Shown one piece after another: positions 40,853-45,084 of a stretch of DNA of 64,000 bases. The translations under genes and the position numbers were made by a program. The stretch spans positions 1 to 64,000 of the forward strand of contig JANLSU010000054.1 in NCBI GenBank assembly GCA_031362565.1. Reading direction: 5' to 3'. This DNA is from a bacterium (GTDB lineage: Bacteria; Krumholzibacteriota; Krumholzibacteriia; G020349025). Positions within the stretch are counted from its first letter, which is position 1, and every line of letters starts with the position of its first letter. The notes beneath the pieces are model-generated. The model had not been told where the DNA came from and did not search any database. It saw only the letters and a program-made list of their open reading frames with translations.

Positions 40853-42184
40853 ATGAGGGCGATTCGACTCGTGACGCCGGTCCCCGGGCCCCGAAGCCAG
40901 CAACTGCTGGCGGCGCGCCGCCAGTGGGTGTCGGCCGGGGTGTCGGAAGCGCGGCACGGGGTGTTTTTCGCGCGCGGTCAGGGCGCGCGACTCGAAGACG
41001 TGGACGGCAACGTGTTTTTGGATTTCGCGGGTGGCATCGGCTGCATGAACGCCGGCCATTCGGCGCCGCGGGTCGTCGAGCGCGCCCGCGCCCAAATGGA
41101 TGCATTGCAGCATGCGTGCTTCATGGTGGCGCCGTACGAACCGTACGTGGCGTTGGCAGCCAAACTCTGCGCCATTGCACCGGGCGTGGGACCGAAAAAG
41201 GCGGCGCTTTTCACCAGTGGCGCGGAAGCGGTCGAAAACGCCGTCAAGATTGCGCGCCGTGCCACGGGCCGTCCGGCGGTGCTCGCCTTCGACCCCGGCT
41301 TCCACGGCCGCACACTGCTCGCCATGACGCTCACCAGCAAGACGACGCCGTATCGCGACGGTTTCGGCCCGTTCGCGCCGGAAGTCTATCGCTTCCCGGT
41401 TCCCGATCTCTTGCGGCGGCCGCGCGGCATGTCGGAAGACGAATGTATTGCGCGCGGCAGCGCCGATCTCCAGCGCTTCTTGAAAAGCAACGTGAATCCC
41501 GCCTCGATCGCCTGCGCCATCATCGAACCGGTTTTGGGCGAGGGCGGCTTCATCGTGCCACCGGCGGAATTCTTGCGGGGGTTGCAAGCGCTTTGTCGCG
41601 AACACGGAATTCTATTCGTCGCGGACGAAGTGCAAAGTGGGTTCGGGCGTACGGGTGCGATGTTCGCCTGCGAGCATCTCGGACTCGAACCCGATCTTGT
41701 GACGCTTGCGAAATCGCTCTCGAACGGCTTCCCGCTCGGCGCCGTCGTCGGGCGCGCCGAAGTCATGGACGCCGTTCAACCGGGCGGGTTGGGCGGCACG
41801 TTCGGCGGCAATCCGGTGGCTTGCGCGGCGGCACTCGGCGCCATCGAAACGATCGAGCAGGAAGGCCTGGTCGCTCGCGCCCAAGTCATCGGCGAAGTCG
41901 TTGGCGCACGCTTCGCCGCCTGGCGGGACCGTTTCGCATTCATCGGCGACGTGCGTGGGGTCGGCGCCATGCGCGCCCTCGAGATCGTGCGCGACCGCGA
42001 CAGCCTCGAGCCCGACAAGGCGCGCACCGAGCGCGTTGTGGATGGAGCCGCGCGCCGCGGCCTGCTGATGGTCACGGCCGGCCTGTATGGCAACGTGATT
42101 CGAACCCTCATGCCGCTCGGCATCGCGGATGATGAACTGCGCGAGGGCCTCGATGTCCTCGAAGCGTGTTTGGCGGAGGCATGA
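40853..42184 (+). CDS. gabT: 4-aminobutyrate (5-aminovalerate):2-oxoglutarate aminotransferase
   Basis: DVDGNVFLDFAGGIG, SGAEAVENAVKIAR, EPVLGEGG, DEVQSGFGRTG, LAKSL, GGTFGGNP. Confidence 0.9.
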   Translation: MRAIRLVTPVPGPRSQQLLAARRQWVSAGVSEARHGVFFARGQGARLEDVDGNVFLDFAGGIGCMNAGHSAPRVVERARAQMDALQHACFMVAPYEPYVALAAKLCAIAPGVGPKKAALFTSGAEAVENAVKIARRATGRPAVLAFDPGFHGRTLLAMTLTSKTTPYRDGFGPFAPEVYRFPVPDLLRRPRGMSEDECIARGSADLQRFLKSNVNPASIACAIIEPVLGEGGFIVPPAEFLRGLQALCREHGILFVADEVQSGFGRTGAMFACEHLGLEPDLVTLAKSLSNGFPLGAVVGRAEVMDAVQPGGLGGTFGGNPVACAAALGAIETIEQEGLVARAQVIGEVVGARFAAWRDRFAFIGDVRGVGAMRALEIVRDRDSLEPDKARTERVVDGAARRGLLMVTAGLYGNVIRTLMPLGIADDELREGLDVLEACLAEA

Positions 42185-43428
42185 GCGCGCCGCGCCAGAA
42201 ACAAATCACGCGCCGCGTCGTGATCTTGGGCGGCGCCGGTGCGATGGGGCGCATTACGATCCGCGACTTCCTGCGTACGGCGCGCGGCCGGATCGAAGTC
42301 GTGGTCGGCGATCGCGACGCGGAGGCGGCGCGCGATCTTGGCGTTGCGACGGTTGCGGTCGACGTCAACGACCCGGCCAGTTTGCGCCGGGCGCTCGACG
42401 GCGCCTTCGCGGTCATTGCGTCGCTGCCCTATCGCTTCAACGAAGCGGCGATGCAGGGCGCGCTCGCGGCGGGTGCACACTACGTCGACTTGGGCGGGCT
42501 GTTCCATATCACGCGGCGGCAATTCGCGCTGGCGCGCGACTTCGAATCCGCCGGGCTGATGGCGATTCTCGGCATGGGGTCGGCGCCGGGCATCTTGAAC
42601 ATCCTCGCCGTGCGCGGGGCCGAGGGCCTGGATCGCGTCCACGAGATTCATTGCATGGTGGGAGCCGTCGATCACACGCGTTATCGCAACGTCCCGCCAC
42701 TCGGATTCGGCTACTCGCCCGACACGCTTCTCGATGAATTCCTGATGGAGTCCGCCGTCTTTCGCGCCGGTAAGTTCCGGATGGTGCCGGCGCTCGATCC
42801 CGGCGAGCAAGTCGCGGAGCGGTTTCCCGCGCCCGTTGGCCGCGTGATGCTGCACTCGACGCTGCATTCGGAAGTCGCGATGCTGCCGCTGTCGTTTGCG
42901 GCGCGTGGCGTGCGCGAAGTGACGTTCCGGCAGGGTTTCGAACCCGAGACACTGGAACGACTGCAATTTGTCGTGCGGATGGGTCTCGCCGACACCGAGC
43001 CACTCGTGCTCGGCGCCGGCCGCGGCGGGGCACGCGGCGTAGATGCAGCCGGCGCCCCCGTCAGCCGCCGCGTCATTCCACGCGATGTGTTGAACGCGCT
43101 ATTGGCGCGCTTCCCAGCGCCCGAGCCGGTCGGCAAACAAAGCCGCTATGAAATCCTGCGCACCCGCGTCGTCGGTCTGCAAAAGGGCCGCAAGGTGTCC
43201 GTCGTCGCCGATTGTCACGCCGGCCCGCGCGCCGGTTGGGGCATCGGCCCGGATATCGATACCGGCGCGCCGCCTTCGATCGCCGTGCAGCTCTTGGCTT
43301 CCGGCGAGATGCCGGTGCGTCCCGGAGTGTGGGCCTGCGAACAAGTCGTGCCCGCCGCCCCCTTCATTCGCGAACTCGAACGCCGCGGCATGCAAGTCAA
43401 GGTGCGCCGCGAAGCCAAGCCGCGCTAA
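42181..43428 (+). CDS. Saccharopine dehydrogenase-like oxidoreductase (lysine 6-dehydrogenase / carboxynorspermidine synthase family)
   Basis: GGAGAMG Rossmann motif, HYVDLGG, GMGSAPG, HSEV, PGVWACE; ATGA overlap with gabT. Confidence 0.88.
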   Translation: MSAPRQKQITRRVVILGGAGAMGRITIRDFLRTARGRIEVVVGDRDAEAARDLGVATVAVDVNDPASLRRALDGAFAVIASLPYRFNEAAMQGALAAGAHYVDLGGLFHITRRQFALARDFESAGLMAILGMGSAPGILNILAVRGAEGLDRVHEIHCMVGAVDHTRYRNVPPLGFGYSPDTLLDEFLMESAVFRAGKFRMVPALDPGEQVAERFPAPVGRVMLHSTLHSEVAMLPLSFAARGVREVTFRQGFEPETLERLQFVVRMGLADTEPLVLGAGRGGARGVDAAGAPVSRRVIPRDVLNALLARFPAPEPVGKQSRYEILRTRVVGLQKGRKVSVVADCHAGPRAGWGIGPDIDTGAPPSIAVQLLASGEMPVRPGVWACEQVVPAAPFIRELERRGMQVKVRREAKPR

Positions 43429-43471
43429 GGCGTTGCTCTGGCCGCCATCGGGCGCGAGTTCCACCGCCTTA
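43426..43471. terminator. Long imperfect hairpin at the end of the operon
   Basis: TAAGGCG (43426-43432) pairs with CGCCTTA (43465-43471), with further internal pairing; no U-tract. Confidence 0.35.
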
Positions 43472-43582
43472 ACGCGCGTTTCGACTGCCAAGCCACCACA
43501 GGCCGCGCCGAAGCTCCGGCTTCAGTGCCCCGCAAGACGGAAAACGTCGAGACACTCTCTCGTGCCCCGATTGCCCCGCACA

Positions 43583-43707
43583 GCATTCGCCCCAGACGAG
43601 TCCGCCCTCGCCACCGGCATTGTTGTCTTGCAAGCACTCGTTCCAGAACGAGTCCGCTTCCGGTGTCGAACCTGTTGTTCTTTCCTGGGCTCGTCGGGCG
43701 AGTACAC
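43583..43707. repeat. Degenerate ~52-bp tandem repeat (about 2.5-3 units), each with a palindromic core
   Basis: GCATTCG/GCACTCG/GGGCTCG at 43583/43634/43687; CGAGTCCGC/CGAGTCCGC/CGAGTACAC at 43597/43649/43699; TGTTGT at 43621/43673. Confidence 0.6.
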
Positions 43708-43830
43708 ATCGCTTTTGGGCAAGGGCGTGCCATGACTGGGGGTGAGTCGAGAGGCTTCTGTCTCGCTTCACGGAGAGGCTGGCCACAGTGCCACGTTCGG
43801 CTTTCGCAGTGGGACCGCCGCGTGTCGGTG

Positions 43831-43843
43831 GTTTTCAAAGAGC
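43831..43843 (-). promoter_or_regulatory. boxA-like antitermination motif
   Basis: GCTCTTTGAAAAC on the minus strand, just 3' of hairpin CGGCGC-CCTGGA-GCGCCG (43865-43848). Confidence 0.55.
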
Positions 43844-43890
43844 GCGCCGGCGCTCCAGGGCGCCGATGGCTTGGCAATCGCACCGCGCTT

Positions 43891-43906
43891 CGCATTCGAC
43901 GTGCCA
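43891..43906 (-). promoter_or_regulatory. Candidate sigma54 promoter pointing into the noncoding region
   Basis: TGGCACG-TCGA-ATGCG: perfect -24 element with GG-N10-GC spacing. Confidence 0.55.
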
Positions 43907-44151
43907 TGAGTGTTGCTCGAGGAAAACGGGGCTACACCCCGGTTTGTCGAAACCTCGCGCCCGTGAATTGTCTACGGGAGAGATGGGCATCCGTCCACGA
44001 CGTTGACACGGGCACGGAGCACGAGGCGATGCCGCGGGCTCGCCACAATCAGAGCTCCGCGGGAAGTCGCTGGCCCTGCGGGCGAGGTGCTGCGACGCGA
44101 CCCGATGGACTTCCGAGGCGCCTGCAACGATGCTGCGGGCTGGGAGGCGGG

Positions 44152-45084
44152 ATGCGCTCGTCCGGGCAATGGCGTCGGTTCTTGGCTCGTCACCGGGCCA
44201 TCTCGACCGCGAGCGGGCTCGTGGTCGCGGTCGGCATCGTGGCCTTCGTGCGGCTGCCCGAGGCGTCCGGTTTTCGCGGCGCCGGCGCCGCTGCCGCTCA
44301 GCCGCTCTTGCCGCTCGCGGTCCTCGCGCACAGGCCAGCAGCACCACCCGGAAAGGTCGTCGCTTTGAGTGGCATCCGGATGTACTACGAAGAGCACGGC
44401 ACGGGTGCGGCGCTCGTGCTCTTGCACGGCGGGGCCGGCAACGGCATGCAATTCGAAAAGCAGTTGCCCGACTTCATTCCACACTATCGGTGCATCGTGC
44501 CGGATCTAACAGGCCAAGGCCGGACCACGGACCGGCCCGGGCCGCTCACGTACCACGCCATGGCGGACGACGTCGTGGCGCTGCTCGACAAACTGCATGT
44601 CGAAACCGCGGATCTCATGGGGTGGAGCGACGGCGGCGTCGTCGGCATCGACATCGCCATTCATCATCCGGAGCGGTTGCGGCATCTCGTGACGTTCGGA
44701 GCCAATTTCGCGCCCGATGGCCTGAACGCACCGGACGTCCATTGGAACCAGACGGCGACCGCCGACAGCTTCGGCCCCGGCATGCGCGAGGGTTATCAAC
44801 GGCTTTCCCCGGAACCCGCCAACTACGAACAAGTCATGAACAAGATCATTGCGCTGTGGCGCGATCAGCCGAATTTCACGCTCGAAGAGTTGCGCTCGAT
44901 TCGCACCCCGGCGCTGATCGCCGCCGGCGAACACGATGTCGTCCGCACCGACCATACCCAGGCGCTCGCGGCAGCGATTCCCGGCGCCCGCCTGTGGATC
45001 GTGCCTGGCGCCTCGCATAGCGCGATGCAAGAACAGCCGGTGCTCGTCAACAAGACGGTGCTCGAGTTCCTCGCCACGCCTTGA
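44152..45084 (+). CDS. Exported alpha/beta hydrolase
   Basis: LLHGG, GQGRT, GWSDG nucleophile elbow, GEHD, PGASH; ATG 44152 after GGGAGG; N-terminal WRRFL followed by a hydrophobic segment. Confidence 0.9.
   Translation: MRSSGQWRRFLARHRAISTASGLVVAVGIVAFVRLPEASGFRGAGAAAAQPLLPLAVLAHRPAAPPGKVVALSGIRMYYEEHGTGAALVLLHGGAGNGMQFEKQLPDFIPHYRCIVPDLTGQGRTTDRPGPLTYHAMADDVVALLDKLHVETADLMGWSDGGVVGIDIAIHHPERLRHLVTFGANFAPDGLNAPDVHWNQTATADSFGPGMREGYQRLSPEPANYEQVMNKIIALWRDQPNFTLEELRSIRTPALIAAGEHDVVRTDHTQALAAAIPGARLWIVPGASHSAMQEQPVLVNKTVLEFLATP

Follow-up and report, generated by a model that had tools for sequence, protein, structure and literature searches.

A candidate family of sigma-54-dependent, boxA-led non-coding RNAs in a Krumholzibacteriota genome

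Introduction

What occupies a stretch described in a first-pass annotation as the longest without a convincing gene in a 64,000-nt window of bacterial DNA? The window (positions 1 to 64,000 of contig JANLSU010000054.1, assembly GCA_031362565.1, phylum Krumholzibacteriota) carries on its minus strand an element for which the first-pass annotation had proposed a single small RNA gene: a structured, sigma-54-driven transcript with a boxA, convergent with an amine-catabolism operon that it might help to control, and perhaps able to sequester Hfq and CsrA. The analysis described here suggests a different answer. The element, at about 44010-43426, is on balance probably one of about 20 enhancer-dependent sigma-54 units equipped with the antitermination leader of the organism's ribosomal RNA (rRNA) operon, a leader that would allow a long untranslated RNA to escape Rho.

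The boxA sequence and the Nus factors have long been seen as machinery of rRNA operons and phages. The leaders of CRISPR arrays are a known exception, and there too, as in rRNA, boxA stands ahead of untranslated sequence. A sigma-54 promoter resembles TGGCAC-N5-TTGC, its -24 GG and -12 GC separated by 10 bases, and is served by upstream activator sites about 80-150 bp away; regulatory RNAs that depend on such promoters include Pseudomonas CrcZ/CrcY, Vibrio Qrr1-5, and enterobacterial GlmY/GlmZ. By recruiting NusB and S10, boxA renders RNA polymerase Rho-resistant (PMC10250234, PMC4807359, PMC5725501). Outside rRNA, suhB and a handful of mRNAs are known exceptions; at suhB the boxA complex represses translation or promotes termination, and the survey of non-rRNA boxA sites, according to its authors, left non-coding RNAs aside (PMC5725501).

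Results

The genome under study (G000) is a single metagenome-assembled genome of 133 contigs and 5.4 Mb, rated 100% complete. A DNA search brought up two parts of the region at other places in this genome. Modelled on the initial paralog matches, a profile retrieves 20 copies at E < 1e-3, with the window copy eighth of the 20 by score, and a covariance model of promoter and leader finds 18. These are minimum numbers, since several copies lie where a contig ends. What had been taken for one small RNA gene is instead a member of a dispersed family of about 20 copies. In an alignment of all 20 (A1), conservation is confined to blocks separated by randomised spacers, and mean column identity is 48%. 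In order, the blocks are two palindromes, CCGTAGAGCCA with a T-run, a -24/-12 promoter, TTCGACCG, a hairpin, and GTGTTCTTTGAAAA. The sequences from which the first-pass annotation argued are all present on the minus strand where it had placed them, among them TGGCACG-N4-ATGC, the CGGCGC hairpin, GCTCTTTGAAAAC, the ACTCGT hairpin, GCTTGCAAGACAACAATG, AAAGAACAACA, and the hairpin at 43471-43426.

The sigma-54 type promoter, TGGCACGTCGAATGC (TGGCACG-N4-ATGC), lies at 43892-43906 on the minus strand, with its GG at 43905-43904 and its GC at 43893-43892; from the usual promoter spacing, transcription is predicted to start near 43880. Such a word is unremarkable by itself within the window, where the pattern with at most one mismatch is found 3 times against 2.28 expected and 39 of 100 shuffles reach 3. 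The promoter, like the hairpin and boxA described below, is significant because it is conserved in 20 paralogs, not through the window alone. The GG, the C that follows it, and the TGC are invariant in 20/20 copies, and the family consensus is TGGCCCG-N4-TTGCGA, with TTCGACCG at the predicted start.

Upstream of the promoter, two palindromes are retained in most of the 20 copies, as judged from A1 and a per-copy listing. Palindrome 1, a candidate enhancer site at 43991-44009 (minus strand), reads GTGTCAAC-GTCG-TGGACGG in the window copy, which deviates in its right half from the family consensus GTGTCAAC-N4-TCGACA; its centre lies about -119 from the predicted start. The position of palindrome 2 (43968-43987, minus strand) is occupied by the degenerate sequence CCCATCTC-TCCC-GTAGACAA, the block in which the window copy has diverged most; the family consensus there is (C)CGTCAC-N5-GTTGACGA, centred about -96. 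Between enhancer and promoter, the conserved block CGGGGTGTAGCCCCG-TTTTCC (43921-43941, minus strand) is kept in the copies, with the family form CCGTAGAGCCA plus T-run. A consensus scan also flags a terminator-like hairpin there, and that the block serves as a DNA-bending site is a guess.

These sequence elements give the family the layout of a classical sigma-54 promoter that depends on an enhancer. Besides rpoN (213 bits), the genome has 26 matches to the sigma-54 activator domain PF00158, 22 of them with E < 1e-60, and the sigma-54 promoter proposed earlier is supported. None of the genes upstream of the family copies encodes an activator, and a loose genome scan for the upstream palindromes was too noisy to outline a regulon.

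The boxB-like hairpin CGGCGC-CCTGGA-GCGCCG lies in the predicted transcribed leader at 43848-43865 (minus strand). Its covariation could be assessed within paralogs of the one genome only, because no searched relative carries the family; 500 shuffles and slid controls served as the standard. Pairing is found in 82.1% of 179 cells, compared with 27-51% in the slid controls, and five of the nine pairs vary on both sides. Cells changed on both sides number 13, against 3.2 in shuffles, and 1 of 500 shuffles reaches 13. The family leader consensus is the hairpin CGGCGCC-NNCGAG-CGCCGG followed by GTGTTCTTTGAAAA.

Just beyond the hairpin, the boxA GCTCTTTGAAAAC (43831-43843, minus strand) is identical with the boxA of the genome's own 16S leader. 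The exact 12-mer GCTCTTTGAAAA has only 2 sites in 5.4 Mb, one in the 16S leader (C117:5898) and one in the window element. A boxA-like word with 0-3 mismatches stands at the equal position in 12/12 aligned full copies, those other than the window's differing by 1-3 mismatches. The 16S gene is represented by a single assembled copy (contig C117), whose leader (C117:5733-6500, minus strand) has a sigma-70 type promoter, TTGACC-N17-TAGGGT, then the hairpin GTCGTCCCCGCGAGGCGACG, then boxA CTGCTCTTTGAAAACTGA; the order of hairpin and boxA is common to this leader and to that of the family. Both nusB and rho are found in the genome. The boxA here differs at one position from GYTCTTTAANA, a consensus that is gamma-proteobacterial (PMC5725501). 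The relevant yardstick is the organism's own rRNA boxA, and by that yardstick the identification of boxA made in the first-pass annotation holds. A one-mismatch boxA-like word, GCTCTTTGACAA, occurs at C117:3500 on the same strand, 3' of the 16S gene and probably in the 16S-23S spacer. A further boxA-like word, on C14, was set aside because it falls inside coding sequence.

The predicted RNA body is marked by two related motifs. Motif mA, AGTGTCTCGACGTTTTCCGTC in the window (43536-43556, minus strand) and ACTGTCCCGACGTNATCCGTC in the family, has 30 loose-pattern sites in the genome; mB, AGCGCAGACGTTTTCC, has 20. Downstream of a family promoter and on the same strand lie 18 of the 30 mA and 13 of the 20 mB sites, and none is antisense, so that all 31 sites near a promoter are in sense orientation. 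On the sense strand, the same words also turn up within three paralogs of an HNH endonuclease, and an ImuA/RecA-like gene has two of them at its 5' end. The reading frame differs among these occurrences, two of which stand 10-20 nt before an ATG, and this speaks for conservation of the nucleotide word rather than of a peptide. A peptide reading of mA was rejected on other grounds as well: many copies have a TGA or TAA in frame a, and in frame c T-ending codons are invariant despite the genome's high third-position GC. A tblastn search with the HNH protein found no remnants in the promoter-linked loci. Elsewhere, at C12:38031-38175, three mA form a 45-nt tandem behind a remnant of the 5' end of an HNH gene.

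A third element of the body is the 18-bp palindrome ACTCGTTCTGGAACGAGT (ACTCGT-TCTGGA-ACGAGT, 43653-43636), which with its tail GCTTGCAAGACAACAATG spans 43618-43653 on the minus strand. It has 15 exact sites in the genome, with the family form ACTCGTTCYRGAACGAGT and the fixed tail GCAAGATAACA, matched at >= 8 of 11 positions in 11 of the 15. The palindrome centre varies (TG, CG, CA, TA), and GGA is present in only 6 of the 15 sites; what had been described as a GGA-loop hairpin is this palindrome, and the supposed A-rich linker after it is its fixed tail, not a spacer. Eight family copies have the palindrome downstream, and 4 have it upstream in divergent orientation. Allowing one mismatch, 17 sites are found in this genome and 0-4, about control level, in other genomes. 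Assembly graphs from three DNA runs break at the palindrome and are uninformative on presence/absence polymorphism. At three loci, C71:15390, C31:62031, and C112:21681, the palindrome stands immediately next to a CRP/FNR-type site, TGTGA-N6-TCACA; two of these loci have no sigma-54 unit nearby, and the palindrome may serve as operator in a regulon of its own.

The gap that contains the element is free of coding signal. On one side the convergent gene, saccharopine-dehydrogenase-like (42166-43428, plus strand; PF03435, PF16653), is the last of a plus-strand operon; on the other lies a divergent alpha/beta hydrolase gene on the plus strand (PF12697, PF00561). The hydrolase domains begin only at residue 295 of the frame at 43525-45084, and for this reason the gene-free gap, 43429 to about 44151, is wider than first stated; the ATG at 44152 is the proposed start, giving a gene at 44152-45084. 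A 160-codon open reading frame (ORF) at 43425-43907 covers the region exactly, matching the coordinates of the first-pass annotation. Its GC content by codon position is flat (0.61/0.67/0.63), against 0.75/0.50/0.79 and 0.70/0.48/0.80 for the flanking genes, the latter being the hydrolase from 44152. The predicted product has no Pfam match and no homolog among 136 candidates (0/136). The gap from 43429 to about 44151 reads as non-coding, as the first-pass annotation had held of its narrower region, and the convergent placement stands as well.

A hairpin, AAGGCG...CGCCTT, lies across the stop codon of the convergent gene at 43426-43471, as seen in the sequence and the predicted fold, and could provide an end for both transcripts; it shows no conservation in the paralogs. 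Two more TGGCAC words fall within the predicted transcript on the minus strand, ATGGCACGCCCTTGCC at 43718-43733 and GTGGCACTGTGGCC at 43780-43793. In the first the TTGC is one base too near for a sigma-54 promoter, and neither word is kept in the paralogs.

Across the family, the leader gives way to 0.3-1 kb that lacks a credible gene and holds the two sense-strand motifs and the 18-bp palindrome, and most copies have no credible co-directional gene for 0.4-1.8 kb downstream. Of the 16 copies to which a first downstream gene could be assigned, 12 face a convergent gene and 4 a co-directional one; of the remainder, two precede another tandem unit, the copy on C98 runs off the contig end, and that on C75 is followed by no ORF passing the filter. 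The 17 neighbouring genes are functionally unrelated, with HlyD-type, rpoC end, 5'-3' exonuclease, deoxyhypusine synthase, PntB, protein kinase, and GAF among them. Type-IX-like tails were also noted in this genome. Because these neighbours share no function, the link to an amine-catabolism operon is unlikely. Tandem units with promoters 0.4-0.9 kb apart are found at C59:3558-4960, C16:12236-13147, and C128:18800-19345, and in the copy C16_13147 the hairpin is set off from the start region by a 34-nt insertion. The window's contig carries a second, more diverged copy beyond the window (C126:82790-83140), which has CGGCCTG-N4-TTGC, lacks boxA, and is preceded by the palindrome in divergent orientation; its close paralog is the copy at C75:21352.

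No description of such a family was found in Rfam or in searches of the literature, and the novelty claimed against Rfam has held. The whole window has no family match at gathering thresholds and the region none at E up to 5; for three paralogous loci searched at E up to 1, the only hit is a spurious viral hairpin (25.8 bits against a threshold of 70). In a DNA search of 40 relatives the region is unmatched, apart from one 31-nt match in G011. Motif and combined patterns run over 208 genomes of the phylum, G000 included, did not find the family outside G000: mA has 19 sites in G000 against 1 elsewhere, and sigma-54 plus boxA 7 against 0-2 chance-like singles. An exact palindrome in G006 was rejected as a family site; it lies in what seems to be coding sequence. 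The covariance model, applied to 100 relatives, gives no family member, its one 25-bit match, in G061, being a repeat-protein gene. Wider searches returned single matches, 2 in JGI metagenome contigs (without the promoter unit), 44 in 185,579 species genomes (about chance by estimate), and 2 in IMG/VR.

Discussion

The arrangement of the conserved blocks suggests how such a unit might work. An activator of sigma-54 would bind the two upstream palindromes and open the -24/-12 promoter, as the anatomy implies. The first 50 or so nucleotides of the RNA would then present a boxB-like hairpin followed by boxA, as conservation and covariation indicate. Given the established role of boxA, NusB and S10 would load there and make RNA polymerase Rho-resistant, and a long untranslated RNA, about 0.45 kb at this locus, could be completed. 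More speculatively, the RNA body might display its mA and mB motifs to a sequence-specific factor as a decoy.

Several observations weigh against this interpretation. All of the support comes from paralogs within one metagenome-assembled genome; the family is confined to that genome among those searched and was not found in its relatives. The predicted RNA of 455 nt folds no better than shuffled sequence (z = -0.86), and no shared structure was found in the mB-mA modules. With its two central bases, the 18-bp palindrome resembles a DNA site for a protein more than it does a hairpin in RNA. Co-directional genes follow four copies, and some units may therefore be mRNA leaders. The window copy itself is a diverged member that may be weak or decaying, because both of its upstream palindromes are imperfect, an A replaces the near-invariant T ahead of the -12 GC, and it has a single mA (43556-43536), alongside one 18-bp palindrome (43653-43636).

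A selfish mosaic repeat, similar to BIME/REP, Correia, or Rickettsia palindromic elements, would account for some of these features, with the window copy as a decaying insertion that has no role in the cell. The family is scattered, in 20 copies, among unrelated genes and mainly at 3' ends, an intergenic abundance typical of MITE- or REP-like elements. Its modules vary in order and orientation, as the placement of the 18-bp palindrome illustrates; the copies at contig ends suggest assembly breaks; mA also resides, in differing frames, in HNH-endonuclease genes and at the ImuA-like 5' end; the C12 locus joins an HNH-gene remnant to a 45-nt mA tandem; and the family is restricted to one genome among those searched. 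Yet the sequence between blocks is randomised, unlike that of recently moved elements. Similarity is block-confined, and neither terminal repeats nor target duplications came to light, although the search for them was not systematic. What has been kept is what a working sigma-54 promoter and Nus site would need, compensatory changes in the hairpin included. A selfish origin thus seems unlikely, though it deserves to be taken seriously. The predominance of convergent downstream genes raises the question of whether the unit is instead a regulated antisense device, in which Rho-resistant transcription into the saccharopine-dehydrogenase-like gene or its operon would silence it by interference or duplex formation. 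At this locus the unit and the end of the gene are divided by no more than a weak hairpin, and boxA would shield an untranslated antisense RNA from Rho, which the genome encodes. However, 12 of 16 exceeds an even split only weakly (one-sided binomial about 0.04), the convergent genes have no common function, four copies face co-directional genes, and the conserved body motifs would be superfluous; we regard this explanation as rather doubtful.

Control at the level of DNA for the divergent hydrolase gene, or a small or decayed protein gene, is very unlikely. The distance from the upstream palindromes to the proposed start of the hydrolase is about 140 nt, and the 160-codon ORF does span the region; but the paralogs have no common hydrolase neighbour, the ORF has flat codon-position GC and neither a Pfam match nor a homolog, and the covarying hairpin points to a minus-strand transcript. 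Most improbable of all is the sponge originally envisaged, a CrcZ-like and CsrB-like RNA whose A-rich linkers would titrate Hfq and whose GGA-loop hairpins would titrate CsrA. A sigma-54 promoter and a length of about 450 nt do recall CrcZ, the loop of the window palindrome contains GGA, and of the four genes named for checking, rpoN, csrA, and nusB are all present; the fourth, hfq, has no match in a genome rated complete. Neither type of motif exceeds chance in the predicted RNA: AANAANAA occurs once against 0.12 expected (49 of 500 shuffles reach 1), GGA 8 times against 9.4, and ANGGA not at all against 1.9. The inconstancy of GGA among the palindromes and the lack of an Rfam match point the same way.

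If the element is indeed a sigma-54 unit with an antitermination leader, its closest counterpart is the rRNA-operon leader itself (boxB-boxA-boxC, with the NusB/NusE/NusA/NusG/SuhB complex; PMC10250234, PMC4807359), with which it shares a hairpin within a few bases of an identical boxA. It differs in having a sigma-54 promoter and enhancer sites rather than the sigma-70 type rrn promoter, no rRNA downstream, and about 20 copies. The suhB leader and other such targets likewise carry boxA on a non-ribosomal transcript (PMC5725501), but in the family boxA precedes untranslated sequence and belongs to a multi-copy sigma-54 set. The family resembles RNAs of the CrcZ, Qrr, and GlmY type in having an enhancer-dependent promoter for a predicted non-coding RNA, in its paralogs with a common type of upstream site (as in Qrr), and in its repeated body motifs (as in CrcZ); GlmY/GlmZ and RapZ form the enterobacterial comparison system (PMC7073468). 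Unlike these, it has no Rfam match and no hfq, its motifs are 16-21 nt long and neither GGA nor A-rich, it has a boxA leader, and it runs to about 20 copies.

Among dispersed elements, bacterial interspersed mosaic repeats include BIME/REP, Correia, and Rickettsia palindromic elements. The Brt family of Bartonella is a set of genus-specific multi-copy RNAs (PMC5387305). Like both, the present family is dispersed, intergenic, lineage-restricted, and a mosaic of short blocks, one of which is also found within coding genes; unlike them, it has a full enhancer, a sigma-54 promoter, and a Nus site, and is similar only in functional blocks. Small RNAs that depend on sigma-54 are known, and so are boxA leaders; a multi-copy family that joins both ahead of an untranslated, motif-bearing RNA is a new variant. 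If the interpretation is correct, bacteria would be able to use boxA quite generally to protect long non-coding RNAs from Rho, and to do so in response to signals. In any case the family is a natural test set, offering 20 variants of promoter, enhancer, and boxB/boxA leader.

A bolder extension is conceivable, in which the 20 or so units form a regulon of sigma-54-activated, Nus-antiterminated RNAs whose arrays of 16-21-nt motifs (core GACGTNNTCC) act as inducible decoys for an RNA-binding regulator of ImuA-like and HNH genes. It is a long shot, suggested by the sharing of motifs; if true, sponge RNAs would gain a new system, and regulatory RNAs built on an rRNA antitermination signal would have their first example. 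The family points in any event to an unexplained motif common to SOS-mutagenesis and HNH-nuclease genes. A LexA connection was considered and dropped, since the second lexA of the genome has its own, different palindrome. That lexA-like gene (C89:62326-62493, within C89:62112-64010) has its own sigma-70-like promoter and a AAGACGCGCGTCTT palindrome and is followed by an ImuA/RecA-like ORF with two mA, 72 nt apart, at its 5' end; the pair stands back-to-back with a boxA-less family copy. On the HNH side, four full-length paralogs of about 700-800 amino acids share a C-terminal HNH-type motif (C60:27780-30203, plus; C70:109715-111913, minus; C83:15153-17210, plus; C14:6599-8572, plus) and have no Pfam match at E<=0.001. 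Two of them carry an in-frame mA, read as PTVPT(S/F)SV, and one has two mB, read in another frame as SSADVF.

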